From the IMG/VR virus record IMGVR_UViG_3300028835_001421: 38,994 nt of DNA. One strand, 5' to 3'. The position numbers and the translations under genes are program-made. The notes beneath the pieces are model-generated. The model saw only the letters and a program-made list of their open reading frames with translations. It made no database searches and was not told the DNA's origin. This DNA is from a virus. Below are positions 6,336-36,853 of this stretch, piece by piece; the stretch's first letter is position 1, and the number at the start of each line of letters is the position of its first letter.

Positions 6336-6337
6336 GA

Positions 6338-11738: not shown

Positions 11739-12692
11739 ATGGCTATTACAACAACGAGTGTTCTTCCCGCTCCGGTTCAACAAACTTTTGACTTGAAGCT
11801 TTTGAGCGTTGCGGTTCCCAATATGATTCACAAGCTTGCGGCAGTTAAAAAAACTATGCCTGCAAATGGTGGAACAACACTTAGAATGCGTAGATACAAT
11901 CCTCTGGCTACAGCAATGGTTCCTCTCGGAAACACTGGTGTAACCCCCCCAGCCCAAGTACCCACAGCAGTGGATATTGATGCTAAGGTCTCTTTTTATG
12001 GAACATATCTTCAAGTAAACGAACAAGTAACTTTGCAGAACCAGGATCCAACCCTGAACGAATTTGCAAAAAGACTTGGTGTTTCTTTGAGGCAGACTGA
12101 AGATCAGTTAACCAGAGATATGCTGGCTGCAACTGCTTCGCATATTAACTGCACCGGTGGTGTAAATGGAGATAATCCAACTAATTTAACAAGATCTGAC
12201 ATCAATGAAGTTGTCGGAGCTCTTTTAGATGCAGATGCGTATACAATTTTGGACAGCATAGAGGCTGAAGACAAATTCGGAACAGCACCTGTTCGTGAAG
12301 CATATTTTGCAATGTGTAGCACGAAGTTGCAGGGAGACCTTGAAGATGTTTCGGGTTTCTTACAGAAGAACCAATACCCTTCACCTATGAACGCATCTCG
12401 TTCTGAGTGGGGATCCATTGGAAGCATTAGATTCTTGCTTTCTTCAATTGGATCTGTTGCACCTGCAGCGTCTAACTTAGGTAATGATGTATACAATATT
12501 TTCTGTACTGGTATGGAAGCTTATGCATGCGTTGAACAGGATAGATATTCTGCTCAGTTTATTTACCTACCCCCTTATATTGCTGGTGGTCCGCTCGCGC
12601 TTACTGCTTCAGTTGGATATAAGTTTGCTGAAGTTCCTCGCATCCTGAATGATGAGTGGATTGTCAACTTACGCACAACCCTATCTTCATAA
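11739..12692 (+). CDS. Major capsid protein
   Basis: A 317-aa ORF after the scaffold-like gene. The N-terminal pattern (ANGGTTLRMRRYNPL) resembles what I recall from capsid proteins of some podoviruses. Position and size also fit. Confidence 0.8.
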   Translation: MAITTTSVLPAPVQQTFDLKLLSVAVPNMIHKLAAVKKTMPANGGTTLRMRRYNPLATAMVPLGNTGVTPPAQVPTAVDIDAKVSFYGTYLQVNEQVTLQNQDPTLNEFAKRLGVSLRQTEDQLTRDMLAATASHINCTGGVNGDNPTNLTRSDINEVVGALLDADAYTILDSIEAEDKFGTAPVREAYFAMCSTKLQGDLEDVSGFLQKNQYPSPMNASRSEWGSIGSIRFLLSSIGSVAPAASNLGNDVYNIFCTGMEAYACVEQDRYSAQFIYLPPYIAGGPLALTASVGYKFAEVPRILNDEWIVNLRTTLSS

Positions 12693-15965: not shown

Positions 15966-18251
15966 ATGGCATATGATCGTTTTTTAATTGCTCCTATGAA
16001 GACTGGTTTGATTACCGATGTTAAGGCATGGCAGATACCTGAGGATGCATATACAAGGCTTAATAATGCATATATACACAAGGGCGTAGTTAGAAAGCGA
16101 TTTGGATCTCAATTGATGGCACCAACAAGTTCCGCATCTCAGTTAGACCAACTTAATTCTCGTTTAAGAATCAGTACAGACACTACAGATGGCTCAGGGG
16201 GCGCTTCAGGAACTGTTCCTGGAGCAGTTTTTGCTGTTGGACAGATGTTTTCCATAGGAGATGATATATACAACGTTGTTGAGACTGGCAATCCGGGAAC
16301 AATGATTACTACTGGAGCAGCAACTACCATGACATATGACACAACTACTGGTGCATATGTTTTTGCTGGTGCGTCTGCAGCAAAAGCAATTTACTTTTAT
16401 CCCGCTATGCCTGTCATGGCGCTTTCCCATTTTGAGGAAAATAAGGTCGCCAACAATCCAACATATGCATTCGACCAGCAATTTATCTATAGATTTAATG
16501 GTGCTTCATGGCAAAGAGATGGAACGGTTGTACTACAGGGAAGTGATTCCGATTTTATTTGGAGTGCCAACTGGACCGGTAGAACGCTAGATGAAACAGC
16601 GCTGTTTATATCTAATTTTAATGCAACAATTGGAACACCGGCAGCTGGTGATGATCCAATGTATTCCTATAGGAATAGTACGTGGTCAGAATTTAGGCCT
16701 GTATATAAAGTAGCCGCTAACCTTTCGGATGGGTATGTTCAGTCAGCAAAGATAATACTACCATTTAAAGACAGATTAATTTTGTTAAACACGATAGAGA
16801 GAGATGTTACGGCAGGAACTAACGCTGAGCATGTTAATAGGTGTCGCTTTTCTCACAATGGTACTCCATTTCCTGCAGATGTACCTGATAATGTTGCAAG
16901 TGCTGTATCCAGTGCTTGGTTAGAGGGAAGTCAAACCTGGACAATAGGCGGAACAACAAAAAGGTCGGATGGTGCAGGATTCCTAGATGCTCCTACTGAA
17001 GAAGAGATAGAAACTGCAGAATTCATTAAGGATCGTTTAATCGTTTATTTTGAGAGAAGTACATGGGAACTAGCGTATACGGGTAATCAAGTGCAGCCAT
17101 TTGTCTGGCAAAAGATTAATACAGAGCTTGGCTCTAAATCTTTAAAGGCTCCTGTTCCTTTTGATAAAGCGGTATTCTGTGTTGGAAGAACAGCTATACA
17201 TGGTTGTTCGGGAGCTAATGTTTCAAAGATTAACGAAGACATATCTGACCAGATATTTGAAATAAGAAATGCAAATGAGGGTCTTAAAAGGATCTCTGGA
17301 ATAAGAGATTACTTTACCGAGGTAGTTTATTGGGCATTTCCTTCTATTAACGCGCACACAGATTCACAAACGTTCCCAGATAAAGTTCTTATATATAACT
17401 ATATAAGCGACTCATGGGCAACTGCCGACGATACTATTACTGCTTTTGGGTATTACGAAGAGCAGGCTGCTACTTCATGGGAATCAACTGAACTGACGTG
17501 GAGCCAAGCTAACTTTATGTGGGATAGTGGTTCAAAGCAGACAAAGTTTAGGCAGATAATAGCTGGTAACCAGCAAGGATTTGTTTTCATTTGTGATGCA
17601 GACATATCTACTAACGAAGCAGCAATGCAAATCACGCAACTCGAAAACTCTGGAGCTGAAGTTCACTGTACAATCGTTAATCATACATTGAACGATAATA
17701 GCTATATAAAGATAATAGATGCGCAGGGGATAACTCTGACCGGTTCTGGTATATATTCCGTTGAGGTTATTGATTCAGATACTGTAAGGATTTTAGGTAC
17801 TACGCTTACTGGAACTTATGAAGGTGGTGGCAGAGCAGCTCGTGTTTCTCAGATAGATATCCTTTCCAAGCAGTGGAACTTTTATATCGATAAGGGAAAG
17901 AACTTTTATCTAGCCAAGATTTCATTTGCTGTTTTGAAGACGGCGGCTGGTGAAGTAACTGTCGACTACTATCCTTCAGCCACTCAGCTATCAATGATAG
18001 AGAGTGGTCAAGCAACAGGTTCAATACTTGGAGATAACAATCTACAGACGTATCCTTTCGAACTTTATCCATTAGAGAGTTCACAGAATAGACTATGGCA
18101 TCCAGTATATTTTCAGACTGAGGGTGAATGCGTTCAGATCAGAATATATCTAGACGATGCTCAGATGAAAGATGTTGCTATATCGTCATCTGATTTTCAG
18201 ATGGAAGGACTTATAGCGTTTACGCGTCCAACATCAGAAAGGATGCAGTAA
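15966..18251 (+). CDS. Large tail protein (nozzle / tubular-B-like candidate; 761 aa)
   Basis: Starts 2 nt after the previous stop. The size and position match the large tail tube/nozzle protein of podoviruses. No motif-level proof. Confidence 0.45.
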   Translation: MAYDRFLIAPMKTGLITDVKAWQIPEDAYTRLNNAYIHKGVVRKRFGSQLMAPTSSASQLDQLNSRLRISTDTTDGSGGASGTVPGAVFAVGQMFSIGDDIYNVVETGNPGTMITTGAATTMTYDTTTGAYVFAGASAAKAIYFYPAMPVMALSHFEENKVANNPTYAFDQQFIYRFNGASWQRDGTVVLQGSDSDFIWSANWTGRTLDETALFISNFNATIGTPAAGDDPMYSYRNSTWSEFRPVYKVAANLSDGYVQSAKIILPFKDRLILLNTIERDVTAGTNAEHVNRCRFSHNGTPFPADVPDNVASAVSSAWLEGSQTWTIGGTTKRSDGAGFLDAPTEEEIETAEFIKDRLIVYFERSTWELAYTGNQVQPFVWQKINTELGSKSLKAPVPFDKAVFCVGRTAIHGCSGANVSKINEDISDQIFEIRNANEGLKRISGIRDYFTEVVYWAFPSINAHTDSQTFPDKVLIYNYISDSWATADDTITAFGYYEEQAATSWESTELTWSQANFMWDSGSKQTKFRQIIAGNQQGFVFICDADISTNEAAMQITQLENSGAEVHCTIVNHTLNDNSYIKIIDAQGITLTGSGIYSVEVIDSDTVRILGTTLTGTYEGGGRAARVSQIDILSKQWNFYIDKGKNFYLAKISFAVLKTAAGEVTVDYYPSATQLSMIESGQATGSILGDNNLQTYPFELYPLESSQNRLWHPVYFQTEGECVQIRIYLDDAQMKDVAISSSDFQMEGLIAFTRPTSERMQ

Positions 18252-20813: not shown

Positions 20814-21041
20814 TTATTTCTTATCCTTTTTTTTTAGTAGCCCGAGTTTTCTCAAGTATGCTTTTGCTTTTTTTTTTATAACTTTATAGAATAATTTCTC
20901 GAAATTAAGATTAGGATGTTTCTTTTTCATTTCAGTTATATCAGAAAGATGTGCTCCTCCGTACGGATAGTAAACATATCCCTTTATAGGGAATAAATTT
21001 ACTGATAAAGATAGTAAAAGAATTAAGAACAAAGCCTTCAT
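20814..21041 (-). CDS. Island gene a: small secreted basic protein (75 aa)
   Basis: Signal-like N-terminus MKALFLILLLSLSVNLFPIKG. SD aaaagga upstream. It has its own promoter candidate at 21083..21112. Confidence 0.6.
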   Translation of the reverse strand: MKALFLILLLSLSVNLFPIKGYVYYPYGGAHLSDITEMKKKHPNLNFEKLFYKVIKKKAKAYLRKLGLLKKKDKK

Positions 21042-21082
21042 AACGCGTCCTTTTTACAGAGATAATTATAACAACTCCTAAT

Positions 21083-21112
21083 ATTATAGGAAAAAAAATA
21101 GGACCGATGCAA
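21083..21112 (-). promoter_or_regulatory. Sigma70-like promoter for island gene a
   Basis: On the minus strand: ttgcat (21112..21107), an 18-nt spacer, then tataat (21088..21083). Confidence 0.45.
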
Positions 21113-21167
21113 GCAATTATTCGGGACACAAAAGCACCGGTCCATTGATGAGTATTAGGTATGAAAT

Positions 21168-21434
21168 TTATTCTGAAGCTACGAGTTCTTCCATAGCTCT
21201 CATTGTTTCTCTATCTTTTTTTGGCTTAAAAGAAATAGCTCTTTTGACATCGCTTTTTTTAAGTCTTTCTCGTAGGAATTTGAAGAAACAAGGATTTGCT
21301 TCTTTCATCAAGTCTGCACTTTTTGCTATGGCTTCCTCACCTGATGGTATTCTGCAGACGTATGGATCATCTTTAATTCCGTAAGTGTTACTCGCAATAA
21401 ACATTAGTGCGATAGTAAAAATAATCTTTTTCAT
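21168..21434 (-). CDS. Island gene b: secreted protein (88 aa), paralog of gene d
   Basis: The start is refined to the ATG 6 nt after aaagg. Signal-like N-terminus MKKIIFTIALMFIASNTYG. Shares the KKSDVKRAISFKPKK...AMEELV block with gene d. Confidence 0.6.
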   Translation of the reverse strand: MKKIIFTIALMFIASNTYGIKDDPYVCRIPSGEEAIAKSADLMKEANPCFFKFLRERLKKSDVKRAISFKPKKDRETMRAMEELVASE

Positions 21435-21450
21435 AATCATCCTTTATTTA

Positions 21451-21936
21451 TTAATCTCTATCTATATATATCATTCTGGAAAGATCCGAAAATTTCCTTG
21501 TTCTAATAATCGGCCTGAATTCTCCTGTCTCAATGCCTTCAATTGAAAATGGTGCAGGGCGCGCGGCTATATCTTCAGATGGAGTATCAATAGTTATAAA
21601 CGCATACTTACCCATTCTTTTGTTTGCTACTAGCACAGACTTCTCAGGAACCTTACTGTACGTTTCTAAGTGAACTAGATTTTTAATTATTTGAAATGCT
21701 TTTTCTGCAGATACTTTATCAAAAATCACTTCATATGCCATGAAGTCTCTTCTGTCTGTTGACATCCATAATGATTCAGCAAAAAGAGCTCTTCTTTCAT
21801 CATGAGACATGCATTCCCATCTATTACTTTTAAGAAAATGAATGTGTTCGGCTGACATATCGACTTCCATAGCTCGCAAATTTGCAAGTCCTACACAACT
21901 GATAAAAGCAGCAAATAAAATAAGTCGTCTAAACAT
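21451..21936 (-). CDS. Island gene c: secreted protein (161 aa)
   Basis: SD ggagaag 5-6 nt upstream. Signal-like N-terminus MFRRLILFAAFISCVGLANLRA. No family recognised. Confidence 0.65.
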   Translation of the reverse strand: MFRRLILFAAFISCVGLANLRAMEVDMSAEHIHFLKSNRWECMSHDERRALFAESLWMSTDRRDFMAYEVIFDKVSAEKAFQIIKNLVHLETYSKVPEKSVLVANKRMGKYAFITIDTPSEDIAARPAPFSIEGIETGEFRPIIRTRKFSDLSRMIYIDRD

Positions 21937-22223
21937 AGTTCTTCTCCGTTAGCTTTGAATTCTTTAATTCCCAACACAATTTCTTCTAGGGCTTTCGCAT
22001 TCATACGTACCCTTTTTGGTTTCATTGCTATCGCCTTTTTTACATCACTCTTTTTAAATATCTCACATAAGTACAATAAGATATGAGAGTCTTTCTTGAC
22101 GGCCATTAAAAATCCTTTTTGCAATGCACTATCACCAGAATCTATTTCCATAGAATAGGTAGTATTAATCCCAGACATGACTAATATGAGGAAAGCCATC
22201 ATCGCTATCGCTATCATCTTCAT
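21891..22223 (-). CDS. Island gene d: secreted protein (~110 aa), paralog of gene b; start uncertain (22223/22217/22202)
   Basis: Signal-like N-terminus MKMIAIAMMAFLILVMSGINTTYS. Contains KKSDVKKAIAMKPKR...ALEEIV, matching gene b. The 5' end lies in the 15-nt tandem repeat of gene e, in another frame. Confidence 0.5.
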   Translation of the reverse strand: MKMIAIAMMAFLILVMSGINTTYSMEIDSGDSALQKGFLMAVKKDSHILLYLCEIFKKSDVKKAIAMKPKRVRMNAKALEEIVLGIKEFKANGEELCLDDLFYLLLLSVV

Positions 22224-22644
22224 CCGAGTCGCAATCATCCGAGTCATAATCATCCGAGTCATAGGACCCCATTCCTTCAAATAGCCCAGTGGGTTTAGGC
22301 TTAGGTTTAAGTGAAACTTCTTCCTGTGTTTTTTTTCGTACTGGAGGCATCTCTAGAATCAATCCATCTGAATCCTCTCCTTTACGCCATTTATTATTAA
22401 ACTTAATAAGTTGGCGTACTCCAATGAATCCAATAGCCCCAAGCGAAGCTACTGATATAATTGGATGTGCTATTGCAAGTGTTATTAATGATTTCAATGC
22501 AAGCGCACCTATAACGCCTCCAACTGCAACTAATACATTTCTAGCAACTTTTGATTCACGCTTATTTTGTTTAGTAGCCTGCATATTACCTAAGCAAAAA
22601 ATAGATAATAGTAGGCCTAGCATTAATGTTTTTTTATCTTTCAT
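22165..22644 (-). CDS. Island gene e: membrane protein with a Gly/Ala-rich hydrophobic hairpin and an acidic repeat tail (159 aa)
   Basis: SD aggag 7 nt upstream. N-terminus MKDKKTLMLGLLLSIFCLGNMQA, hydrophobic hairpin VLVAVGGVIGALALKSLITLAIAHPIISVASLGAIGFIGV, and tail DSDDYDSDDCDSDEDDSDSDD. Confidence 0.65.
   Translation of the reverse strand: MKDKKTLMLGLLLSIFCLGNMQATKQNKRESKVARNVLVAVGGVIGALALKSLITLAIAHPIISVASLGAIGFIGVRQLIKFNNKWRKGEDSDGLILEMPPVRKKTQEEVSLKPKPKPTGLFEGMGSYDSDDYDSDDCDSDEDDSDSDDGFPHISHVWD
22221..22265. repeat. 15-nt tandem repeat, 3 copies (catccgagtcNNaat on the plus strand)
   Basis: Copies at 22221..22235, 22236..22250 and 22251..22265. They encode the DSDDY/DSDDC/DSDED tail of gene e on the minus strand. 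Confidence 0.9.
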
Positions 22645-22978
22645 ATAGAACTCCTATACTCCTTGGTATCCTTACAGTCCTCGGAGGATTTGGGTTAATA
22701 TGTGGTCTTTGTGGTCTAATCCTGCGGAAGACTATCGGTCTGAATGCCTCATCCGCTCTCCTAAACAATTTTTCTTTTAGTTCAAAGGCTTCTTGTCTTC
22801 TGTCCATCCACCTTACAAAAAACATTGTTCCTACAGCGGCCACTGCTAAAGCGGCAATCTTATATATTCTGTTATATGATGATACTTCTTCAGGTGGCTT
22901 CTCTATTGTGCTTGCAATTGGGCTACAGCCTATTGCCAATAAAAATGTCAAAATAAGTGATCTTTTTACGTTTCCCAT
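22634..22978 (-). CDS. Island gene f: lipoprotein with an additional TM segment (114 aa)
   Basis: SD gggga upstream. Lipobox LLAIGC after MGNVKRSLILTF. Second hydrophobic segment IAALAVAAVGTMFFV and an Arg/Pro-rich tail. Confidence 0.65.
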   Translation of the reverse strand: MGNVKRSLILTFLLAIGCSPIASTIEKPPEEVSSYNRIYKIAALAVAAVGTMFFVRWMDRRQEAFELKEKLFRRADEAFRPIVFRRIRPQRPHINPNPPRTVRIPRSIGVLYER

Positions 22979-23475
22979 AATTTCCCCACTTCCTCTTCTT
23001 CTTCTTTGCTTTCATCTTCCTCTTCACTTTCATCTTCCTCTTCGTCCAGGTATCTCTTTTCACGACGCCTTCTTGATCTACGTAGCTTTCTCATTTTGCG
23101 CATCATTTGTGAATATTTTCTATCTCTACGTTCCATCATTCTGGTCAGGTGACCAACTTCCTCTTTAAGCTCTTCCTGGTACTTTATCTGTGCTATATCA
23201 ATCCCAGATACTTTCTTTGTAACGTAGTTAGCACCGGCTGCAATAAGATATGGTGCAGCAATGGTTACAATGGGTCCTAGACCAAATGGTATCAATGTTG
23301 ATGCTGCTGCTGTACCTACTGCTCCAAGTACAGGAAGCACGGATGAACCAGCTGTTGCTAGTGATCCAATAGTTCCTGATAACCAAGATTTAGTAGTATT
23401 GGTGTAGCTAGCATTAGCCACGCCACTAACAGCTAAAAATGTAAGTAATAATATTGATTTTCGTGTGTTATCCAT
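22966..23475 (-). CDS. Island gene g: membrane protein with a ~50-aa Gly/Ala-rich hydrophobic hairpin, a basic coil and an acidic repeat tail (169 aa)
   Basis: The start is refined to MDNTRK (ATG after aaagaaaggga). Signal-like SILLLTFLAVSGVANA, hairpin GSLATAGSSVLPVLGAVGTAAASTLIPFGLGPIVTIAAPYLIAAG, and tail RRSRRRREKRYLDEEEDESEEEDESKEEEEE. Confidence 0.65.
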   Translation of the reverse strand: MDNTRKSILLLTFLAVSGVANASYTNTTKSWLSGTIGSLATAGSSVLPVLGAVGTAAASTLIPFGLGPIVTIAAPYLIAAGANYVTKKVSGIDIAQIKYQEELKEEVGHLTRMMERRDRKYSQMMRKMRKLRRSRRRREKRYLDEEEDESEEEDESKEEEEEVGKLWET

Positions 23476-23534
23476 AGTGTCCCTTTCTTTTGTGCCCCCC
23501 GGCACCATGATTAAAATATAACCTAACTATAACT

Positions 23535-23563
23535 AGTCTAACATTCCTTATTCCCAATGTCAA
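23535..23563 (-). promoter_or_regulatory. Sigma70-like promoter P1 driving island genes g to b
   Basis: On the minus strand: ttgaca (23563..23558), a 17-nt spacer ttgggaataaggaatgt, then tagact (23540..23535). Confidence 0.5.
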
Positions 23564-23600
23564 CACTTTATTTCAATTAGTTTATATTTTATATAGAAGG

Positions 23601-23753
23601 TTACTCTTTTTCATCCTTTTCGGTCTTTTTAGCCTCTTCTTCAGCCCTTTTTTCCTCGTTTTCAATGAAACTTTTTAATTCATATAGATATAGTTCTTCT
23701 ATGAATTTCTTGGTTCTAAGCTCCAATACCATAAAAGGTATGTTTTTATCCAT
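23601..23753 (-). CDS. Possible 50-aa charged helical protein (below the track cutoff)
   Basis: The ORF reads MDKNIPFMVLELRTKKFIEELYLYELKSFIENEEKRAEEEAKKTEKDEKE. Its ATG lies in the loop of the 17-bp inverted repeat 23714..23775. It competes with an overlapping 38-aa ORF (23699..23815). Confidence 0.3.
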   Translation of the reverse strand: MDKNIPFMVLELRTKKFIEELYLYELKSFIENEEKRAEEEAKKTEKDEKE

Positions 23754-23811
23754 TTTAGGGTATTGGAGCTTAGAAGAGATGAAAATAACATGATTAATAA
23801 TAAAGCTATTC

Positions 23812-24279
23812 TCATGTGTCTAACCTTCTTTCGTATTCCATGGCCTCATAAAGTCTCTTAACTACATATTTAGTAACTGTTTGATTATGCTTTTTGGCTG
23901 CTATCCTGACTTGGTTCATTAATTCTGTAGGAATATCAACGTTCAATCTAGTTCTTCCTGGCCTAGCACTTTTTCGATCTTCTAGAAGTTTTTTATTACT
24001 ACGATCTAAAGATATAAATAAGTGTGTAGGATTAGTGCATAATTTGTTTTCACATATATGTCTAACATAATGATGTGCCGGTATTTTCCCTTTATGGGCC
24101 ATCCATGCAGCAATATGCAAACCAATACTTCTTACATTAACGTATACTCTGGTTTGATGTTTTTTACTTATTTTTCCTGACCACCCATAGCAGTCGCTAT
24201 CAGGATTAACTTTGGAGATTATCCTATGCTTATTAAGTGTTTTAAGTATTTTCTCTCTTAGTTCTAAAGTTACATTCAT
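23812..24279 (-). CDS. HNH endonuclease fused to a C-terminal ribbon-helix-helix domain
   Basis: HNH_3-like motif GLHIAAWMAHKGKIPAHHYVRHICENKLCTNPTHLF. The C-terminus, GRTRLNVDIPTELMNQVRIAAKKHNQTVTKYVVKRLYEAM, fits a beta-alpha-alpha RHH. SD agggggg. Confidence 0.8.
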   Translation of the reverse strand: MNVTLELREKILKTLNKHRIISKVNPDSDCYGWSGKISKKHQTRVYVNVRSIGLHIAAWMAHKGKIPAHHYVRHICENKLCTNPTHLFISLDRSNKKLLEDRKSARPGRTRLNVDIPTELMNQVRIAAKKHNQTVTKYVVKRLYEAMEYERRLDT

Positions 24280-24379
24280 TTTACCCCCCTAAGCTTCCGT
24301 GAGCGCAGTTAATTATTTGGTATGAATATTAAAAAAAATTACGCTCACGCTACAATGCGATTCGATTTCTATTTACCTT

Positions 24380-24408
24380 ATTGTACTATTCCTTATTACC
24401 CGTGTCAA
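24380..24408 (-). promoter_or_regulatory. Sigma70-like promoter P2 (near-duplicate of P1) upstream of the HNH-RHH gene
   Basis: On the minus strand: ttgaca (24408..24403), a 17-nt spacer cgggtaataaggaatag, then tacaat (24385..24380). Confidence 0.5.
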
Positions 24409-24494: not shown

Positions 24495-26543
24495 ATGGCT
24501 GTAAATAAAAAAAACTTAAAGTTAGCGACTTTTAGTCCTGGTCAAGAAAAGGGTATTTATAAGGACCCACATGTTTCAAAAACAAGAGGTCCTTCCACGA
24601 AAGATAAAGATGAAATTGGATCTATGTGGATAGATTCAGGAAATGATAATGCATATGTTCTTACAAGTATTGTAGCTAATTCAGCTAACTGGGAGCTTTT
24701 CACAGATGAGGTTCCCACAACAGGAACCGATGGTCAGTTGTGGATAGGAGCCACTGGTGCAGCAGCAGCATGGAACAACCTTACATCTACTGGATTGTCT
24801 GTAACAATCACCAATACAGCAAATGGCATTAACCTTGAGGCAGCCGGTGTCGCGGCATTAACGTCCCTTGATTCTGATGTTGGAACAGCTACCCCAAATG
24901 CAGGTGTTATCGACATTACTGGTGGAACTAATATTGGTACAACTGGTGCACTAGGAATCCTAACGGTAAATCTTGATGCAAGTCCTTCTGTTGCTGGTTC
25001 TCTTACGGCTGGTGTTGATTTCACCATGACAAGTGGAACATGCACAATAACAAGTAGCGATTCAGCGGGTGATGATATATATCTTCATGCCGATGGCGGT
25101 GTTGGTGAGACTATAAATATTCACGCAGACCAAGGAACAGCGGTAGACTCTGTCACTATTCAGTCTGATGTTGGTGGCGTATTAATATCTTCTGGGCTTG
25201 CTACGGCAGATGCAATAAACATTGATGCTACTAATGCAGCTGGTGGTATTGACATTGATGCTGGAACAGCTGGCATTAGTATAGTTACGGTAAATGGGCC
25301 AATCGCACTTATTTCAGGAACTGGTGCAATAACAGTTGGTACTGATGCAGCTGCTCATGCAGTAACTGTTGGCTCAACAAACACCACAGCTTCTACAACA
25401 ATCCAATCAGGTTCCGGAGATGTAACAGTTACTTCTACTGACGCTGTCACTGTTGATGCAGCTGGCGTATTGGAGCTTAACTCTTCAGCTGGTGTTATTG
25501 GAATTGGTAATGATGCTGTTGCCCAAGCAATTAATATTGGTACAGGTGCTGCTGCTAGAACTATTACTATCGGTAATGGAACTGCTGCATCAGCTGTAGA
25601 CATTAATTGTGGTACTGGCGATGTAACCGTTGGAACAAACGCAACAGCGCATACGGTAACTGTTGGTTCTACAAATACAACTTCTAATGTCATTGTTCAA
25701 TCTGGTACAGGTGGAATACAGGAAACTAGTGGTGGTGCTTATGCGGTTGATGCAGTTGGCGCAGTTACTATTGAATCCTCTGGAAGCACAATCGGAATTG
25801 GTGTTGATGTTGTAGCTCAGGATATTAACATTGGTACGGGTGCCGCAGCTAGAACAGTAACAGTTGGTAATGGAACTGGTGCAACGTCTATTGTGGTTGA
25901 TTGTGGTACAGGTGCTTGTGATTTTGGCGCTAACGCTACTGCTCATACAACAACGGTTGGATCAGTAACCGCAGCGGCAGATACAAATCTATATGCTGGA
26001 ACTGGTGCTCTAACAATTGATGGCCTAGGTATCATTGATATTGATGCAGCTGGTGCTTTAAGCATTAACTCTGATGGTGGAGCTATTAACATAGGTAATG
26101 ATGCGGATGCCCAAGCTGTTAATGTTGGTACTGGTGGTGCTGCTCGTCCAGTTACTCTAGGTTCAACAAATACAACATCTGCAACAACTCTTCAGTCAGG
26201 AACTGGTGGTGTTTCAATTGAAGCTGCAGGTATAGTCGACATGGTTCCAGCCACAGCTACATTTGCTGGCGCTGCCGTAACCATTGATGCTAACGTTGGC
26301 GTAGGTACATTCACTGGTCTTACGACAGCATCGGCCGCAGCTCAGATATTTACAATTACTAACTCGGTAGTAGGTGCAGGTTCGGCGATATTTGTATCAG
26401 CCAGTAATCTTGGTGCTAACGATGCTCAAATGACTGTAACTCGCGTAACGCCTGGTGCAGGTTCATTTACTGTTACATTGACCAATAATGGCGCAGCAGC
26501 TCTTAACGGCAATGTTTTGATTACTTTTTGGATAATTGCTTAA
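24495..26543 (+). CDS. Tail fibre / beta-helix receptor-binding protein 1 (682 aa)
   Basis: SD ctaggaggtagtt. The N-terminal modules GTDGQLWIGATGAAAAWNNLTS and GGTNIGTTGALGILTVNLD are shared with the other fibre genes. The body is Gly/Thr/Ala/Val repeats. Confidence 0.75.
   Translation: MAVNKKNLKLATFSPGQEKGIYKDPHVSKTRGPSTKDKDEIGSMWIDSGNDNAYVLTSIVANSANWELFTDEVPTTGTDGQLWIGATGAAAAWNNLTSTGLSVTITNTANGINLEAAGVAALTSLDSDVGTATPNAGVIDITGGTNIGTTGALGILTVNLDASPSVAGSLTAGVDFTMTSGTCTITSSDSAGDDIYLHADGGVGETINIHADQGTAVDSVTIQSDVGGVLISSGLATADAINIDATNAAGGIDIDAGTAGISIVTVNGPIALISGTGAITVGTDAAAHAVTVGSTNTTASTTIQSGSGDVTVTSTDAVTVDAAGVLELNSSAGVIGIGNDAVAQAINIGTGAAARTITIGNGTAASAVDINCGTGDVTVGTNATAHTVTVGSTNTTSNVIVQSGTGGIQETSGGAYAVDAVGAVTIESSGSTIGIGVDVVAQDINIGTGAAARTVTVGNGTGATSIVVDCGTGACDFGANATAHTTTVGSVTAAADTNLYAGTGALTIDGLGIIDIDAAGALSINSDGGAINIGNDADAQAVNVGTGGAARPVTLGSTNTTSATTLQSGTGGVSIEAAGIVDMVPATATFAGAAVTIDANVGVGTFTGLTTASAAAQIFTITNSVVGAGSAIFVSASNLGANDAQMTVTRVTPGAGSFTVTLTNNGAAALNGNVLITFWIIA
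25338..26219 (+). repeat. Three tandem 294-nt (98-aa) repeats inside fibre gene 1
   Basis: Units begin at 25338, 25632 and 25926 (GTDAAAHAVTVGSTNTT / GTNATAHTVTVGSTNTT / GANATAHTTTVGSVTAA ... NIGTGAAARTxTxGNGT). Confidence 0.85.
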
Positions 26544-26657
26544 ATTAGTAATTAGCTTTGGATGGCTAGCTCACAGTTAGATCGTATATTTTATATGTGA
26601 AATGTTGTTTTGCTTAATAGGGCTAGCCGTCCAGAAATATCTATTTAAGGAGGATTG

Positions 26658-26978
26658 ATGTCCATCAAGAATTCCATAAATTATGTAAATCTTACATCGA
26701 TTGATTCCAGCACAATTGACGCGACTTTCCGTCCAATAAATCCATTAGGATTGGATGAAGGTTGCTTTTTAATTCGAATAACTAATGCATCCGATGCTGC
26801 AGCTAATGTTAGTTTTGATGGGGTTAGCGATGATCATTCACTGCAGCCTAATGCGATTATTGAAGTGTTTTGTCCTGGTTCATGCGATGAATACACAGGA
26901 GTTAGAAAGGGTAGCATCATTATGGTTCGCGGAGGAGCAGGAACGGGAATGATATATTTAAGTGGATATTATATTTAA
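26658..26978 (+). CDS. Small beta-rich protein, paralog 1 of 3 (106 aa)
   Basis: The ATG lies 4 nt after aggagg (the track TTG start is only 1 nt away). Shares the N.S/T-D...SFDG...G.G.xYLSGYY pattern with 27008..27343 and 27673..28017. Confidence 0.65.
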   Translation: MSIKNSINYVNLTSIDSSTIDATFRPINPLGLDEGCFLIRITNASDAAANVSFDGVSDDHSLQPNAIIEVFCPGSCDEYTGVRKGSIIMVRGGAGTGMIYLSGYYI

Positions 26979-27007: not shown

Positions 27008-27343
27008 ATGGCTACAAAAAATGCAATTTTGTCTTTAACGCTTGATTTTGTAGATTCTGCAACTTTAAATGCTGTAACATTTACACAATTTGCCACTGGA
27101 GTTGTTCCAGAGTCAGCTTTTTCGTTAAGGTTTACCAATGATAGTAATCTTGGTTACGAAATTAGTTTTGATGGAACAAATCCACATGAATTTATTGTGT
27201 CTGGAGATGCAGTAAGCTTGAACCCAACGCTAACTTGTAAAGAAGCTTTTTTCAAAAAAGGAATTACAATATCAGCTCGAGGAGTTGCAGGAGTTGGGTT
27301 TCTTACCGCGAGTGGATTTTATTTAGATAAAGGAGAAAGATGA
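27008..27343 (+). CDS. Small beta-rich protein, paralog 2 of 3 (111 aa)
   Basis: Contains LRFTNDSNLGYEISFDGTNPHEF...ARGVAGVGFLTASGFYL, the same pattern as its neighbours. Confidence 0.65.
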   Translation: MATKNAILSLTLDFVDSATLNAVTFTQFATGVVPESAFSLRFTNDSNLGYEISFDGTNPHEFIVSGDAVSLNPTLTCKEAFFKKGITISARGVAGVGFLTASGFYLDKGER

Positions 27344-28029: not shown

Positions 28030-31000
28030 ATGAGTCAAGCCGGACAATTTTTTCAAACAGGAGCTCTCGTTTCTCTAACCGGAGATTCTGGTGGTGTGAT
28101 AGGGCCAGTAGCAGGAAACATCAATATTCTTGGTGGAGCTGGTATTACAGTTGCAGGAACTCCTAATACCTTAACTATTTCTCACGCGGGTGTGTTCGCC
28201 GATTCTTTTCCTACAGATGCAGGTACTGCCGTTCCTGTAGCCGGTGATACTAACATACTTGGTGGGACTAATATAAATACAACAGGCGCTGGTAATACTG
28301 TAACTGTTATATTAGATGATAGTGTTTCTCTTGTTGGTTCTCTTACGGCTGGTACGTTTGTAACAGCGACTACAGGAAATATAACTACAACGGCGGGAAA
28401 TATAAATTCTGGTGGTTTAATAACTGCCTTTACTACAATTGAAGCTGGCACTGGTATCACAAGTGTCGTTGGAGATATAACCGCAAACGCTGGAAACGTT
28501 GTTTCTTTAATAGGATATGGTGATTTTGGTACAACTGTTACTGGTGGAACAGGCGTAATAGCTACTACTGGTAATGTTACTGCCACGGCAGGTGATCTTG
28601 TTGCAGGTGCTGATCTTACGGTTGGAGTAGATGTAACGCTTACTTCTATAACAGATGGCGGTCTTATTGTAGATTCAAGCGGTGTAGTCTCAGCTTCTGC
28701 TTCATTGACAATATCTACAGGTTTTGATCAATGGAGTGGTGGTGGGCCATTTTTTGATGATACTGTACTTGGATCATTTGAAGTGCTGACTGGTGGATCA
28801 GGATATATAAACGGGGTCCAGGTTTCATGGGCTGGTAGTCAGACTGTAACTGGTCTTCTCGCTGGGAACACTTACTTAATATATATAGACGACACTGGCA
28901 CAATCGGAAAGACTACAACTTTCAGTGGTCAGGATGCCTATCAGAATAACATTCCACTTTTTGAGGTATTAAGAGATTCTACGGGTACCAATATACAATA
29001 TACCGTTAAAGAGAATCATCCATTTGATTTTCCAGTTGCCGTATCTGTTTACAACCATGATGCAATAGGTACTATAATTGAAAACCAATTACAGGGTGCA
29101 AATATAACTCTTAATGGAACGCAAAAAATAGAGATTGTTGGGGCCGATGAATTAGATGATCATGGTTTGCATACAGTTATTCCAGATGGTGGTGGTGTAG
29201 CTGAAGTGTGGAATCAAATGTATACAACTGGTGCTGGAAAGTGGGCGACCTATCAAGCTTCAGATACATTTAATGGGTTTTGGAATAGCGCCGGAACACC
29301 TACAGCTGGCTCTGGTACTAGGTTTAGCATTTATACTCTTTATGTCTCTAAGGATAATATTACAGTTGATACTCCTATATATTGGGCTGTCTTAGATGAT
29401 CAAGAATACAATAACCTTGGAACAGCTGAAACGGCTATAGCCGATGGAACTGTATCACTAGCTACAGCTGAATTGGCCAAACTTGAACTAGCCCAGCTTG
29501 GTCATATAATTTATAGGCAATCTACAAGCACAATAGTTGAAGTAATTATAGAAAAGGCAACTCTTAGGGCGTTTTTCTCTACAGGAGGTGGAACTAACTT
29601 AGCTTCTTTAGTTCTTACGGATGTAGCTAACTTTGATGGGATTTTATCTGCTAGCGATACAACTGTTCAAGTAGCTCTTGAGACTATAGATGATTGGGGA
29701 TTGCCTCAGGTTAATATCTATTATGTTGGCAAGCATGGTAACGATGCAAACGATGGTTTAAGTATAAACAGAGCATTTCTTACTTTCGGAGCAGCTATAG
29801 CGGCAGCTTCATCGGGTGATGTTGTATCATGTGCCGATGATGGAATCTATACTGAAAATATAACGGGTGTGTCGGGCATAAATATCTACGCCCCAAATGC
29901 GATTCTTGCAGGTAGCCATTCTATAACAACAGATAATATTTGGACATTTGGTGAAATGACGGTAGCGACTGGTGTTACCGGTATAACTATGAACACAGCA
30001 AGTCAAAAAGCTAGCATCAATCTTAAAAGAATAGTTCTTTCTGGAACAGCAACAGGTTTTATTTGTTTGGCTGGTTCTTTAACGTTGTTTGTTGAGAGAA
30101 TCTCGCTTGATAATGGATTTGTGATAGGAAGTACAACTACAGACGACATACAGATTTCGTTTTTATGTCTGTATGTAATAGGAACAGGAACAGTATTTGG
30201 TTGTACAACAGGTGGAGCACTTCAGGCAAGTGGTGATTCTATAAGAAATATGGGCGCTGGAGACGGAACGGCTTTTCTTACATCTGGTGGAGGAACTCCA
30301 GAAATTCATTTAACAGTTTCTAATCTAGACTTAGATAAGCTATCCGATATTACAGCTGCTTCGATAGTTAGTCTGAATGTTTCTAACCTTGCTGGAACAT
30401 TGACTGAAATAGGAGCTGGCAACGTAGTAATCGGTGGCGCTACAAAAATTGAAGGTGTACCAATAGGAGCAGTCACACCTAGTACAGGGGCATTTACTAC
30501 TCTTTCAGCAACTACACCAGTTGGTGTAGCATCTGGTGGAACAGGGGCTGCCACTCTTACTGACCATGGTGTTCTTGTTGGTTCTGGAGTTGGAGCTATT
30601 ACTCCGCTGGCTGTTGGAACTAATGGACAGCTTCTTGTTGGCTCTACAGGAGCAGACCCTGTATTTGCTACTGTGGCGTCTGCGGATAATTCTATAGAAG
30701 TTACTGGTGGTGCTGGAACTATAGATCTTTCTTCTACTGGAACGATAGCTGTAAACAACCAGACCGGAACTACTTACGAACTTCTAGCTAGTGATAGAGG
30801 TAAGATAGTCACGTGTACAAACGCTGCTGCTATTGCAGTTACGATTCCTGTTAATGCTGATGTTGCGATGGATATCGGAACTAACGTTCTCATATCACAA
30901 AATGGTGCAGGAGTGGTAACTCTAACGCCAGAGGGTGGTGTGACCTTGAGGTCTAGGGGAGCGTTATTAGATACTGCTGGGCAGTACGCTATAGCCTCTG

Positions 31001-31050
31001 TTACTAAGATAGCGACAGATGAGTGGCTCTGTGGTGGCGACCTTGCTTAG
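28030..31050 (+). CDS. Tailspike / fibre 2 with a probable right-handed beta-helix (depolymerase-like) domain (1006 aa)
   Basis: SD aaaggagatagat. The N-terminus shares modules with fibres 1 and 3. The segment from about nt 29700 (IYYVGKHGNDANDGLSINRAFLTFGAAIAAASSGDVVSCADDGIYTENI) resembles the entry motif of pectin-lyase-fold tailspikes. The C-terminal part carries a GTNGQLLVGSTGADPVFATV module. Confidence 0.75.
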   Translation: MSQAGQFFQTGALVSLTGDSGGVIGPVAGNINILGGAGITVAGTPNTLTISHAGVFADSFPTDAGTAVPVAGDTNILGGTNINTTGAGNTVTVILDDSVSLVGSLTAGTFVTATTGNITTTAGNINSGGLITAFTTIEAGTGITSVVGDITANAGNVVSLIGYGDFGTTVTGGTGVIATTGNVTATAGDLVAGADLTVGVDVTLTSITDGGLIVDSSGVVSASASLTISTGFDQWSGGGPFFDDTVLGSFEVLTGGSGYINGVQVSWAGSQTVTGLLAGNTYLIYIDDTGTIGKTTTFSGQDAYQNNIPLFEVLRDSTGTNIQYTVKENHPFDFPVAVSVYNHDAIGTIIENQLQGANITLNGTQKIEIVGADELDDHGLHTVIPDGGGVAEVWNQMYTTGAGKWATYQASDTFNGFWNSAGTPTAGSGTRFSIYTLYVSKDNITVDTPIYWAVLDDQEYNNLGTAETAIADGTVSLATAELAKLELAQLGHIIYRQSTSTIVEVIIEKATLRAFFSTGGGTNLASLVLTDVANFDGILSASDTTVQVALETIDDWGLPQVNIYYVGKHGNDANDGLSINRAFLTFGAAIAAASSGDVVSCADDGIYTENITGVSGINIYAPNAILAGSHSITTDNIWTFGEMTVATGVTGITMNTASQKASINLKRIVLSGTATGFICLAGSLTLFVERISLDNGFVIGSTTTDDIQISFLCLYVIGTGTVFGCTTGGALQASGDSIRNMGAGDGTAFLTSGGGTPEIHLTVSNLDLDKLSDITAASIVSLNVSNLAGTLTEIGAGNVVIGGATKIEGVPIGAVTPSTGAFTTLSATTPVGVASGGTGAATLTDHGVLVGSGVGAITPLAVGTNGQLLVGSTGADPVFATVASADNSIEVTGGAGTIDLSSTGTIAVNNQTGTTYELLASDRGKIVTCTNAAAIAVTIPVNADVAMDIGTNVLISQNGAGVVTLTPEGGVTLRSRGALLDTAGQYAIASVTKIATDEWLCGGDLA

Positions 31051-31123
31051 TGTGACATTGGCGCCAAGAAGTAATACTTTCATGATAGATAAAGTTGATA
31101 GTTTTAAATTAACTGGAGATATC

Positions 31124-31816
31124 ATGAAAGTATGTAAAGTTGCTCAGCGCAATAGGATTGACTGCTATGAATGGCGTGATGCAGTTTTTGAAAGAGATAA
31201 TTTTACCTGTCAAGATTGCGGTAGCTCAGGAGATGCCATATTAATCCATGCACATCACATTAAATGTTGGGATGAATATCCTGAGCTTAGGATTGAAATT
31301 AGTAACGGTATAACTTTATGTAGCTCATGCCACGCCAGATTGCACGGAAAGCAGAAGTGTAATTTTATGAAAGATGGCGTATCGTTACTTAAGGGTAGGA
31401 CGTTAAGCAAGGAGCATTGCAAAAAACTTAGCGAAGCTCACAAAGGAAAGAAGCTTAGCCTAGAACATCGAGAGAAGCTTAAAGGCAGAACCCCCTGGAA
31501 TAAAGGAACAAAAGGAATAGTTGTTTCTGGTATGAAAGGAAAAACGCAGAGTGCCGAGGCAAGAAAGAAAATGCGTGATGCTAAAAAAGGTAAGAAATTA
31601 AGTGAGGCGCACAAAGAAGCACTAAAAGGTCGTACTCCATGGATGAAGGGAAAAAGGCATACTGAAGAGAGCTTAAAAAAAATGAGTGATTCACTTAAGG
31701 GAAAGGTTTCGTGGATGAAAGGCAAAACCCACACAGAAGAATCTAAGAAAAAAATGAGTGAATCTTCTAAAGGAAAAGTTCCATGGAATAAAGGACTTAG
31801 AAAGGATGTAGCATGA
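31124..31816 (+). CDS. HNH homing endonuclease with NUMOD3-like repeats
   Basis: The start is refined to the ATG 4-5 nt after ggaga (the track start lies inside the tailspike gene). HNH motif: CQDCGS...HAHHIKCW...NGITLCSSCHARLH. At least five KG-x-SxEHxxKL-type repeats follow. Confidence 0.85.
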   Translation: MKVCKVAQRNRIDCYEWRDAVFERDNFTCQDCGSSGDAILIHAHHIKCWDEYPELRIEISNGITLCSSCHARLHGKQKCNFMKDGVSLLKGRTLSKEHCKKLSEAHKGKKLSLEHREKLKGRTPWNKGTKGIVVSGMKGKTQSAEARKKMRDAKKGKKLSEAHKEALKGRTPWMKGKRHTEESLKKMSDSLKGKVSWMKGKTHTEESKKKMSESSKGKVPWNKGLRKDVA

Positions 31817-34567: not shown

Positions 34568-34768
34568 TTATTTATAGATGCCTTCTTCTCTGACATTGAT
34601 TATCATTTTAATTTGTTCTCTTAGTTTATCGAACTTAGATCTAGGGATGTCTGCTAGAGTGCAAACTCTTAGCCCCATAAGGATACCTTTGTGCATATCT
34701 AGATTGCCAATGTTCTTAAATAGCAGTAACTGTATCTCTCTGACTTGATGTTTCGTAATTAATTCCAT
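34568..34768 (-). CDS. Free-standing copy of the C-terminal domain of the ERF-like protein (66 aa)
   Basis: TAATG coupling to the upstream gene. LADIPRSKFDKLREQIKMIINVREEG matches VADIPRSKFDKVREQAQNIINAREG at the end of 34768..35532. Confidence 0.6.
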   Translation of the reverse strand: MELITKHQVREIQLLLFKNIGNLDMHKGILMGLRVCTLADIPRSKFDKLREQIKMIINVREEGIYK

Positions 34769-35532
34769 TATTTATTTCTGCCTTCTCTAGCATTAATTAT
34801 ATTTTGAGCTTGTTCTCTTACTTTATCGAACTTAGATCTAGGGATATCAGCGACTGTTGTTACCCTTAGGGCGTCAAGTACTTGTTTAGCTATATCTGGG
34901 TAGTTAGCTAGAACGTACTGCAATTCTGAAGCCTGGTGTTGCGTAATGGGTTCAAACGACTCCTCTTTTGCCTTGTAACGAGTGTTTATACCTAATCCGG
35001 CGTTACGCTCCTTCCTTATCACTTGCATGTCGTGCTCACCATCGTCGTCGTCGTAGTCGTCTATTATGGTTATGTTTAGTAGTCCCATAATGTCATGACG
35101 CTTCATAGCTTTAATAGCGGATGAGTAAGATTGTATATCGTTCTTTGAGGGAATTATTCTTGAGCGTGTCTCGATGAACTGTGATGATTTGTGTCTGAGT
35201 CTAGTAATGAGAATAGTCTTCTCATCGCTAAGTTTGGTTTGCTGGGTTACTGATAATCCATTAATGGAAAGTGCTGGGCGTATAGTTCTCACGATTATGT
35301 CTAGGTCTGAGTACTGGTTGAACAGGAAGTTGTTTTTTCTGTTGTTGTTTATTTTAGGGAACTCTCCTTGTGCCTTGGCCAGCGCTGTGCATATCTGATC
35401 AGTCTTCTCTGACTCGTATGGGTCACCCTTGCTGGATTTCTCTCTATCTTTTAGCTTCTTATCTATGTATTTCTCGAGTGCATCAAAATGAGACAGTTGG
35501 TCTCTAAACGTCTCTCTCTCCGTCATGTCCAT
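34768..35532 (-). CDS. ERF-family single-strand annealing protein paralog with an extra C-terminal domain (254 aa)
   Basis: SD aaagga. ERF-like pattern ALAKAQGEFPKI...YSDLDIIVRTIRPALSINGLSVTQ...TRLRHKSSQFIE...SYSSAIKAMKRHDIMGLLNI..DDYDDDDG. Confidence 0.6.
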   Translation of the reverse strand: MDMTERETFRDQLSHFDALEKYIDKKLKDREKSSKGDPYESEKTDQICTALAKAQGEFPKINNNRKNNFLFNQYSDLDIIVRTIRPALSINGLSVTQQTKLSDEKTILITRLRHKSSQFIETRSRIIPSKNDIQSYSSAIKAMKRHDIMGLLNITIIDDYDDDDGEHDMQVIRKERNAGLGINTRYKAKEESFEPITQHQASELQYVLANYPDIAKQVLDALRVTTVADIPRSKFDKVREQAQNIINAREGRNK

Positions 35533-36630: not shown

Positions 36631-36634
36631 TAAT

Positions 36635-36853
36635 TTATCCTTCAAAGGTAGATTTAATTTCCATTACTTTTTCTAGTTTTCGTTCCATGATTTCTAGCCT
36701 TTGTTCTAGTACTTTCCAGATAGTTTCATACGATTGATCTATGTATTTGCGAGTACCTGTTTTAGAGCTCAACATTTCTCTGCGTAAGCGCCACACCATT
36801 ACGCAGAGCGTCATGCTTAAAATAAGGTCTACATAACAGAGATAATTTTCCAT
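36635..36853 (-). CDS. Small membrane-anchored coiled-coil protein (72 aa)
   Basis: TAATG coupling. Hydrophobic N-terminus LCYVDLILSMTLCVMVW followed by a charged helix. Confidence 0.5.
   Translation of the reverse strand: MENYLCYVDLILSMTLCVMVWRLRREMLSSKTGTRKYIDQSYETIWKVLEQRLEIMERKLEKVMEIKSTFEG

Follow-up and report, generated by a model that had tools for sequence, protein, structure and literature searches.

The 38,994-nt virus sequence IMGVR_UViG_3300028835_001421 (hereafter, the window, that is, the whole stretch of DNA analysed) raises the question of why a run of small minus-strand genes interrupts the plus-strand structural genes of a phage and what the products of these genes might do. 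An initial annotation, made without database searches, described seven such genes (in the order of transcription, g, f, e, d, c, b and a) for secreted or membrane proteins, singled them out as the best candidate for an undescribed system, and offered three explanations: superinfection exclusion or envelope remodelling, an unconventional lysis cassette, and membrane effectors reminiscent of the Inc proteins of intracellular bacteria. Our analysis makes it highly probable that these genes form part of an accessory cassette that is regulated and encodes envelope-directed proteins. Of the three functional hypotheses, superinfection exclusion or envelope remodelling fits best and may well be correct, although we advance it tentatively; the lysis cassette is disfavoured, and the Inc-like reading received no positive support. 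The claim of an undescribed system was overstated, given that regulated accessory (moron) islands next to receptor-binding genes are of a known kind; what is new here is the proteins and the regulatory design.

All seven minus-strand open reading frames (ORFs) are present as annotated, and each was also called on the source contig (ENA metagenome ERZ27251131:k141_2939237, 38,991 bp as recorded) by an independent gene caller. The tight packing of the genes holds as well: g and f overlap by 13 nt, f and e by 11 nt, e and d by 59 nt (with the d start at 22223) and d and c by 46 nt, and c is separated from b by a gap of 16 nt, given the b start at 21434. Using the Nei-Gojobori method, we compared the window with the related contig L082, in which g, c and a are 75%, 86% and 76% identical to the window at the nucleotide level, respectively. 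The ratio of non-synonymous to synonymous substitution rates (dN/dS) in the minus-strand frames is 0.355 for g, 0.221 for c and 0.154 for a; in the remaining frames over these genes, dN/dS is near 1 or stop codons are found in one of the two genomes. The island ORFs are real genes, and the payload evolves under purifying selection. The plus-strand ORFs at 22289..23168, considered as the genes expressed from this region, were rejected, the frame holding six stop codons in L082 over g.

Some details of the initial description had to be revised. The start of g moves from 23508 to 23475 (MDNTRKS, 169 aa), following a Shine-Dalgarno (SD) sequence, GAAAGGGAC, that is kept in all relatives; the g-family proteins of the relatives start with M-x-N-x-K-K, with the same SD preceding the ATG. 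The reported depletion in G+C is a modest dip (36.8% in the island versus 40.1% in the window, the 9th percentile of windows of equal size), gene a alone being truly GC-poor (27.6%). Furthermore, the cassette is larger than first noted, spanning positions 20814-24408 (minus strand, as for all cassette features below) and including, in addition to the seven genes, a gene for a predicted HNH nuclease with a C-terminal ribbon-helix-helix (RHH) domain, denoted HNH-RHH, and a second promoter. Between the HNH-RHH gene and the promoter of g lies a 50-aa acidic ORF of uncertain status (23601..23753), which the gene caller predicts as 43 aa on the source contig and as 50 aa on the related contig L083, and for which zero homologues were found among the relatives.

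The cassette can be traced through a clade of related phages. Using the portal and the 682-aa spike-like protein of the window as queries, we retrieved related contigs from IMG/VR, with portal identity of 77-83% in the full-length ones, and defined protein families by all-against-all comparison across nine genomes, namely, the window and eight relatives (L015-L020, L022 and L023). In all eight relatives, a minus-strand cassette is located between the homologues of a Gln-rich 462-aa protein and of the 682-aa protein. The HNH-RHH gene, the first regulator-like gene of the cassette, is found in 9/9 genomes; the g family, with its signal, hairpin and charged tail, in eight of the nine and in L082; the e family, which follows a g-like plan with an AHP turn, in seven and in L082; family u, encoded 5' of the HNH gene, in seven, the window not being among them; and family a, the last or next-to-last gene, in four and in L082. 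Several other families occur sporadically, b/d being absent outside the strain of the window itself and c being common to the window and L082 only. Of ten close relatives, eight carry g; L019 lacks both g and e, and L022 lacks e. Two contigs from a single JGI sample (3300009488) illustrate the turnover: the island of L083 is 100% identical to that of the window, and L082 shares g, c and a with the window, has a different e and a different lipobox-plus-transmembrane (TM) protein, lacks b and d, and contains one additional gene with a signal. In more distant relatives, in which a 761-aa structural protein is 30-50% identical to that of the window, the slot is 0.4-1.5 kb long and contains no such island, often holding just a small RHH or helix-turn-helix gene, sometimes together with one small membrane protein. 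The cassette is dispensable, mosaic and clade-specific.

The common denominator of this shuffled payload is the N-terminus. By a home-made rule (a non-negative n-region followed by a 10-residue uncharged core with mean hydropathy of at least 1.7), signal-like N-termini are present in a, b, c, e, f and g versus three of the 52 other proteins of the window (Fisher p ~1e-5 to 4e-7). Across the nine genomes, the rule identifies 37 of the 47 non-HNH proteins encoded in the slot versus 5 of the 113 plus-strand ORFs on the same contigs. The initial statement that all seven proteins start with signal-like sequences thus stands for these six, and for d only if translation starts at 22223 or 22262; the 86-aa d predicted by the gene caller has no signal peptide. 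Every payload protein is predicted to be sent to the cell envelope. The initial observation thus holds up and lies well above chance statistically.

How is such a cassette expressed? Exact TTGACA-N17-TAnnnT sites occur only twice in the 39-kb window, both intergenic and both on the minus strand. The first, P_head (TTGACA-N17-TACAAT, 24380..24408), is located upstream of the HNH-RHH gene, and the second, P_g (TTGACA-N17-TAGACT with a TG-extended -10 element, 23535..23563), precedes g. The latter corresponds to the promoter P1 of the initial annotation, which proved real and is conserved in all relatives examined that carry g, being located 88-97 nt 5' of g in 9/9 phages with this gene. The counterpart of P_head heads the cassette in nine related contigs, including L015-L020, L022 and L023, and both promoters occupy the same places in the eight relatives that carry g. 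The spacers of P_head and P_g are nearly alike, cgGGTAATAAGGAATag and ttGGGAATAAGGAATgt, and can be read as two tandem heptads, GGTAATA AGGAATA in P_head and GGGAATA AGGAATG in P_g, where the putative operator lies at 23543-23555; the motif is found nowhere else in the window. In seven of the eight relatives with both promoters, the heptads of P_head and P_g match within the phage, and their sequences differ between phages: AGTAATA AGTAATG at both promoters of L023, GA(A/C)GATG AACGATG at both in L022, GAGAACT G(A/G)GAATG at both in L016, and GC(A/C)TATG … CTATG in L018. The exception is L015, in which the two spacers match poorly, and L019 has no P_g for comparison. Because the heptads are phage-specific yet matched across the two promoters, they appear to represent an operator for a phage-specific DNA-binding protein.

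The first cassette gene encodes the probable candidate for this protein. The product of 23812..24279 contains an HNH_3 domain (Pfam, 40.3 bits versus a cut-off of 24.8), with C76, N78, C81 and H86 invariant in nine homologues, and a C-terminal region predicted to form an Arc/CopG-like RHH domain. Matches of the C-terminus are below threshold (RHH_5, E 0.009, 16.2 bits versus a cut-off of 26; CopG_antitoxin, E 0.018; the Arc-like phrog_582, E 0.017), and the strand-helix-helix pattern G-R-x-R-L-x-V-D-x-P … NQT-(V/I)-T-K-Y is kept in most of the nine homologues. The gene occupies the same position in 9/9 phages, at 38-53% identity, and is always part of the first operon. We infer from this arrangement that HNH-RHH is the probable autoregulator of the cassette, binding the heptads via its RHH domain. 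Several RHH repressors, among them omega of pSM19035, Arc/Mnt, CopG and MetJ, recognize tandem heptads or short repeats located within promoters. The resemblance to omega, Arc, CopG and MetJ lies in two tandem 7-bp repeats inside the promoter, a repeat sequence that co-varies with the phage, and a putative RHH-type domain encoded by the first gene; unlike in these systems, the candidate RHH makes up the C-terminal third of an HNH_3 protein, and its matches to RHH families are sub-threshold.

Downstream of P_g, the leader (23476-23534) contains the elements TATAGTTAG…TATATTTTAA, followed by a GC-rich hairpin with a G-rich loop and then by the SD, and this order is common to 9/9 leaders compared (the window, L015-L018, L020, L022, L023 and L082). 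In the window, the hairpin GTGCC-GGGG-GGCAC (23492..23505) is located ~16 nt 5' of the g start, just before the SD. The hairpin forms in all nine single-sequence folds at -9 to -12.4 kcal/mol with differing stems (GUGCC/GGCAC, GUCCC/GGGAC and GCGCCC/GGGUGC). RNAalifold recovered only four pairs with weak covariation, because the alignment program MAFFT set the stems out of register. The leader could contribute to transcript stability, provide a processing site or serve as a translational operator. At the other end of the operon, an intrinsic terminator with a 10-bp stem, GGACCGGTGC/GCATCGGTCC, and a run of eight T (21091..21143) folds at -17.9 kcal/mol. A hairpin and T-run with an unrelated stem sequence are located at the same place, 5' of the a homologue, in L082, L020, L018 and L017. 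The separate promoter initially assigned to gene a (ttgcat-N18-tataat) is to be abandoned in this form, its TTGCAT '-35' being the 3' arm of the conserved terminator (21143..21091). In the transcript map that we consider most consistent with these signals, P_head would drive HNH-RHH and perhaps the 50-aa ORF, and P_g would drive g, f, e, d, c and b up to the terminator, with read-through into gene a, or a weak promoter specific to it, accounting for its expression.

The hairpin proteins g and e show a common plan. In protein g (169 aa, 22966..23475), a Sec-type signal (…VANA|S) is followed by a Gly/Ala-rich hairpin that turns at PFGLGP and then by a long basic helix leading to an acidic tail. 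Members of the family start with a signal that has a small-residue cleavage site; next come an S-W motif, a stretch rich in Gly and Ala that contains the invariant P-F-G-L-G-P turn and A-A-P-Y, and T-K-K-V-S-G, after which the basic helix leads into a tail that is acidic and often rich in Tyr. An AlphaFold2 (AF2) model of g (seven sequences), usable for secondary structure only with its mean predicted local distance difference test (pLDDT) score of 61, places helices at residues 3-20, 47-59, 67-89 and 92-144, the last with pLDDT of ~88, and a disordered tail. Protein e (159 aa, 22165..22644) has a signal-like N-terminus, a bilobed Gly/Ala hairpin and a charged tail ending in DSDD repeats; aligned with those of seven other phages, it follows the g-like plan around an invariant Pro (A-H/N-P, the AHP turn), and the tails of the family are very variable in sequence and charge pattern. 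In both g and e, the tail is basic next to the putative membrane segment and acidic at the end. The initial proposal that the two share an architecture was borne out by profile comparison (hhalign probability 97%, E 1e-10), with both acidic repeats present, and g and e are judged to be distant paralogues on this similarity. Both families are extremely rare. A profile search of 5.8 billion proteins yielded six members of the g family and four of the e family, and an exhaustive scan of 1.84 billion representatives yielded five g clusters, with no cellular relative of g in either set; the six g loci in 241 million metagenome contigs show how rare the clade is. None of the contigs with g- or e-family matches exceeds ~42 kb, which corresponds to an entire phage genome; the metagenome contigs with the six g loci are at most 39 kb long, and the four e proteins are encoded on phage contigs of up to ~40 kb. 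Family u, the third hairpin family, is encoded 5' of the HNH-RHH gene as the first cassette gene in L015-L020 and L023 and is missing from the window; it combines a signal peptide, an extremely basic region of 60-100 residues and, at the C-terminus, a hairpin rich in Gly that is built around an N-P turn.

The remaining genes encode smaller proteins. Protein f (114 aa, 22634..22978) carries the lipobox LLAIGC, as initially noted, and its N-terminus, MGNVKRSLILTFLLAIGC, fits the lipoprotein signal pattern. At ~22 residues past the Cys, a second hydrophobic segment begins, and beyond it lies a basic, Pro/Arg-rich tail of 55 residues. The analogue in L082 shows the same layout (LAIASC lipobox, TM segment and basic tail) with undetectable sequence similarity. 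The proposed paralogy of b and d was confirmed (37% identity, E ~1e-9). Gene d (21891..22262) has an uncertain start (22262, 22223 or 22151); an upstream start is favoured because, by reading of the sequences, the similarity between b and d reaches into the c-region of the signal (NTYG and NTTYS). Protein b itself (88-90 aa, 21168..21440) is basic and predicted to be exported. Protein c (161 aa, 21451..21936) is an orphan, predicted to be exported or possibly lipidated (AAFISC), with two homologues only in 5.8 billion proteins and an unusable AF2 model (pLDDT 40). Protein a (75 aa, 20814..21041), encoded by the last gene, 3' of the terminator, has a signal peptide and a Lys-rich amphipathic tail; its homologues are the last or next-to-last cassette genes in L082, L020, L018 and L017. 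Overall, a to d are predicted to be small basic exported proteins.

None of the seven proteins belongs to a recognizable family, in agreement with the initial assessment: searches of Pfam, PHROGs, PADLOC, NCBIfam and PDB sequences gave nothing above threshold for a-g, and no two of 44 proteins from the pan-island fall into a common Pfam or PHROG family. The defence models of PADLOC gave nothing for a-f and matched g to LeoA at E 0.0054, through the charged tail only. The closest known parallel to the locus is the sieA/immI region (sieA, orf59a, mnt, arc and ant) of Salmonella phage P22. As had been claimed, the P22 layout is 7-20-16-sieA(-)-mnt(-)-arc-ant-9. P22 SieA, an inner-membrane protein of 162-164 aa with three predicted TM segments, blocks DNA injection by interfering with the ejection proteins, and identity between the sequence types of SieA is below 30% (PMC10883804). 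As with sieA and immI of P22, the cassette occupies a slot between the ejection genes and the tailspike or spike gene in the late region of a short-tailed phage, its genes are oriented opposite to the late strand and have their own host-type promoters, the region is dispensable and variable, and RHH regulators are encoded with operators that overlap the promoters, both the RHH domain and the operator being predicted in the present case. The ~160-aa size and the three hydrophobic segments are SieA-like too, but the first segment here resembles a cleavable signal. The cassette further departs from the P22 region in joining the putative RHH domain to an HNH nuclease domain within one protein, in lacking an antirepressor and in carrying a payload of six to seven predicted exported proteins rather than one.

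Another parallel is offered by the small lipoprotein or periplasmic exclusion proteins that are encoded next to receptor-binding genes and expressed independently, such as Llp of T5 and Cor of phi80, T1 and N15. A lipoprotein, Ltp, also functions as an exclusion protein in Streptococcus phage TP-J34 (PMC3952083). The island resembles these systems in that small proteins with a signal or, as in f, a lipobox are encoded next to tail or receptor-binding genes and would be expressed independently of them, but differs in the lack of homology and in the second membrane segment of f, ~22 residues after the putatively lipidated Cys.

Combining these lines of evidence, a mosaic, dispensable cassette rich in signals and located between putative ejection proteins and the first spike gene points to an accessory envelope module, and the operator-bearing promoters opposite to the late strand, the hypervariable payload, the P22-like slot and the restriction of this dispensable cassette to one clade together favour exclusion or envelope remodelling. 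In the mechanism we propose, HNH-RHH produced from P_head would bind the heptads at both promoters and regulate its own synthesis, and P_g would drive g-f-e-d-c-b through the conserved structured leader, with the terminator ending the operon and gene a following. The host RNA polymerase would express the cassette independently of the late genes, presumably early or constitutively, and the products would alter the envelope of the infected or carrier cell such that further phages are excluded. Like P22 SieA, the membrane proteins may keep DNA from being delivered at the inner membrane, and the lipoprotein and exported proteins may mask or modify surface structures in the manner of T5 Llp or Cor. 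The shuffled, fast-diverging payload would then reflect an arms race. The 462-aa neighbour is only 26-58% identical among the relatives versus 66-82% for the flanking structural proteins, and this fast divergence fits the target in an exclusion arms race, as circumstantial evidence only.

Several observations weigh against this proposal. Profile searches detected no integrase or repressor family across the whole genome, and without a recognizable integrase or repressor, exclusion of the prophage type is not established. Neither g nor e is similar to any Sie, Imm, Llp or Cor profile, and the 44 pan-island proteins gave a single match to the Cor PHROG, with E 0.035. In a single BLASTP comparison, e aligned with P22 SieA over 37 residues at E 0.012, and the g family gave an hhalign probability of 0.2% with SieA; by sequence, g and e are judged not to be members of the SieA family. 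The signal and topology predictions rest on the home-made hydropathy rule and on an AF2 model with pLDDT of 61. Another putative RHH-like protein, recognized by eye with no profile match, is encoded at 37170-37373. Finally, endolysin, holin and spanin families were not detected by profile searches anywhere in the genome, and because recognizable lysis genes are missing from it, a lysis role of the island is not to be dismissed by elimination.

That role, an unconventional lysis or lysis-timing cassette in which g and e would act as three-segment proteins of the holin/antiholin type, f as a spanin-like lipoprotein and c as a secreted lytic factor, is unlikely. Protein e resembles class I holins, exemplified by lambda S, in having three hydrophobic segments followed by a charged C-terminus, and it weakly matches Phage_holin_3_1 (lambda S; E 0.03, 15.2 bits versus a cut-off of 23.8) and phrog_126 (E 0.0097), along with the 2-TM SLATT_1 domain (E 0.016). 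These sub-threshold matches, all to 2-TM hairpins, read as shared topology rather than family membership: only one of the 44 pan-island proteins touches Phage_holin_3_1 or phrog_126, below threshold, and within the families, only one of the eight e members and zero of the g members scanned touch a holin profile. Furthermore, unlike class I holins, whose genes are essential late genes conserved in related phages and commonly located beside an endolysin gene, g and e are 160-235 aa long with long tails, are missing from some close relatives (both in L019, e in L022, and the whole island in the distant relatives), have no endolysin gene next to them, and are encoded opposite to the late strand under host-type operator-bearing promoters. 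Shuffling of the payload is seen even among very close relatives, and most relatives contain nothing corresponding to c, b, d or f. As to f, it shares a lipobox with spanins (o-spanins or unimolecular spanins of the T1 gp11 type), and it has neither an i-spanin-like neighbour nor a periplasm-spanning domain between the lipid anchor and the second TM segment. Other small membrane or lipoprotein genes are found on the late strand at 2309-2920 and 5390-6335, neither being clearly a lysis cassette.

It is quite doubtful that g and e instead serve as membrane anchors for phage DNA metabolism, with the basic helix tethering DNA or replication proteins and the acidic tail mimicking DNA or binding a partner. 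An early membrane protein of the DNA-anchoring kind, p16.7, is known from Bacillus phage phi29, the promoters here are of the host sigma-70 type, and the AF2 model of g places the long basic helix (residues 92-144) straight after the membrane segment, followed by the disordered acidic tail that ends in aromatic residues. Yet, an anchoring function is difficult to reconcile with the loss of both proteins in L019 and of the entire island in the distant relatives, or with the e-family tails, which are conserved neither in sequence nor in charge pattern, and it leaves the exported a-d and the lipoprotein unexplained.

Effectors directed at a eukaryote, carried by a phage of an intracellular, amoeba-associated bacterium and comparable to Inc proteins or to the module of Wolbachia phage WO, are a very improbable explanation. 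In g, e and u, the bilobed hydrophobic hairpin of 40-50 residues, with two lobes around a Pro turn, and the long hydrophilic, charged tail are similar to those of chlamydial Inc proteins, and the tail repeats DSDD, DDDY and RS recall what we take to be eukaryotic kinase or sorting motifs. Inc proteins have a non-hydrophobic N-terminal type III secretion signal. Unlike Inc, the island proteins carry an additional Sec-type N-terminus (basic n-region, hydrophobic core and small-residue, AxA-type site), there is no homology, and the g family has no cellular relative. Among 23 contigs from metagenome-assembled genomes (MAGs) in GTDB with a relative of the 761-aa protein, mostly short or phage-sized (many of 30-40 kb), five are labelled Babeliales, Parachlamydia, Simkania, Legionella or Legionellales, and labels of archaea, Bacteroidota and Actinomycetota occur as well. 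These labels are unreliable with respect to the host because contigs of the clade (L020, L063, L073, L075 and others) were binned into inconsistent taxa; moreover, the relatives labelled Parachlamydia or Simkania lack a signal-rich island. A more specific version of this explanation, in which a phage of a protist-associated bacterium carries a hypervariable effector module as the tailed-phage counterpart of the WO eukaryotic association module, with hairpins inserted in a membrane and Ser/Tyr-rich tails engaging host factors, is less credible still. Least credible of all is the notion that the genes have no organised function and travel as passengers with a mobile homing-endonuclease element of the HNH type, which would be in line with the HNH_3 gene heading the cassette, the G+C content below that of the rest of the genome and the mosaic payload, but is at odds with the purifying selection on the payload, the conserved promoters, leader and terminator, and the HNH-RHH gene itself, whose constant position across the nine phages, with 38-53% identity, indicates vertical inheritance rather than sporadic homing.

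If the cassette indeed functions in exclusion or envelope remodelling, new families (g, e, u, a, b/d and c) would join the short list of phage proteins acting on the envelope, under the control of a compact regulatory design that combines HNH-RHH, co-varying tandem heptads at two promoters, a leader hairpin and an internal terminator. The locus would also represent a second, unrelated arrangement of the P22 type, and this would point to the slot as a hot spot of short-tailed phages in general.

The genome that harbours the cassette is podovirus-like and without a cultured relative. The terminal 144 nt of the window (38851-38994) repeat the first 144 nt (1-144), so the sequence is a whole, circularly assembled genome of ~38.85 kb (~38,850 bp). 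The island DNA gave zero matches against 50,697 deposited phage records, and in tblastn searches with the portal and the 761-aa structural protein, the best hits among cultured phages, podoviruses of Proteobacteria, were 21-25% identical (~22% for the portal of the closest ones), which is too low for inferring the host. A relative located at the end of a 545-kb contig, L069, could be either a prophage or a mis-join. Profile matches on the plus strand identify the large terminase (3658-5013), the portal (7159-9222) and a capsid-like protein (11739-12692); the 761-aa structural protein (15966-18251) lies among tail and virion proteins and is followed, beyond the cassette, by large spike- or fibre-like proteins of 682 aa (24495-26543), 1006 aa (28030-31050) and 577 aa (32757-34490), all on the same strand. 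No tRNA genes were found in the genome.

A second group of membrane proteins is encoded between the terminase and the portal (5390-6856, plus strand), comprising two 79-aa proteins, one with its TM segment at the C-terminus and the other with it at the N-terminus, together with a protein with two to three TM segments (5619-5888), a lipoprotein (5881-6099, FMGSC) and a 172-aa soluble orphan. In the relatives, the corresponding region is only ~0.6 kb long, with a subset of these genes, and the cluster is another variable accessory island. A conserved lysis cassette at this place would have freed the minus-strand island from that role; given the variability of the cluster, the comparison does not settle the question. 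Candidate lysis genes are those for proteins with an N-terminal TM segment and a coiled coil at 2309-2581, kept in six relatives, and 2582-2920.

Two of the spike-like proteins may have a module in common, given that an N-terminal stretch of the 1006-aa protein (~28138-28356) matches residues 100-173 of the 682-aa protein with 51% identity. A gene for a homing endonuclease with HNH and NUMOD3 domains (31019-31816, plus strand) is located amid the tail-spike genes and overlaps the 3' end of the 1006-aa gene. The 577-aa protein contains repeated S/T-x-D-x-x-x-x-W-T motifs resembling the BNR/Asp-box repeats of sialidase-like beta-propellers, a likeness read by eye and with no profile match. The early block, on the minus strand at 34.5-37.8 kb, encodes small regulators and two paralogous single-strand annealing proteins of the ERF family (34768-35532 and 36130-36645). 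A third sigma-70-like promoter, TTGACA-N18-TATTCT (37834-37863, minus strand), with a partly palindromic spacer, ACATAAGTACATATGTGC, heads this leftward block and probably carries an operator for a different regulator. Between the first two spike-like genes, the 107-aa (26655-26978) and 111-aa (27008-27343) proteins are paralogues, with 32% identity.

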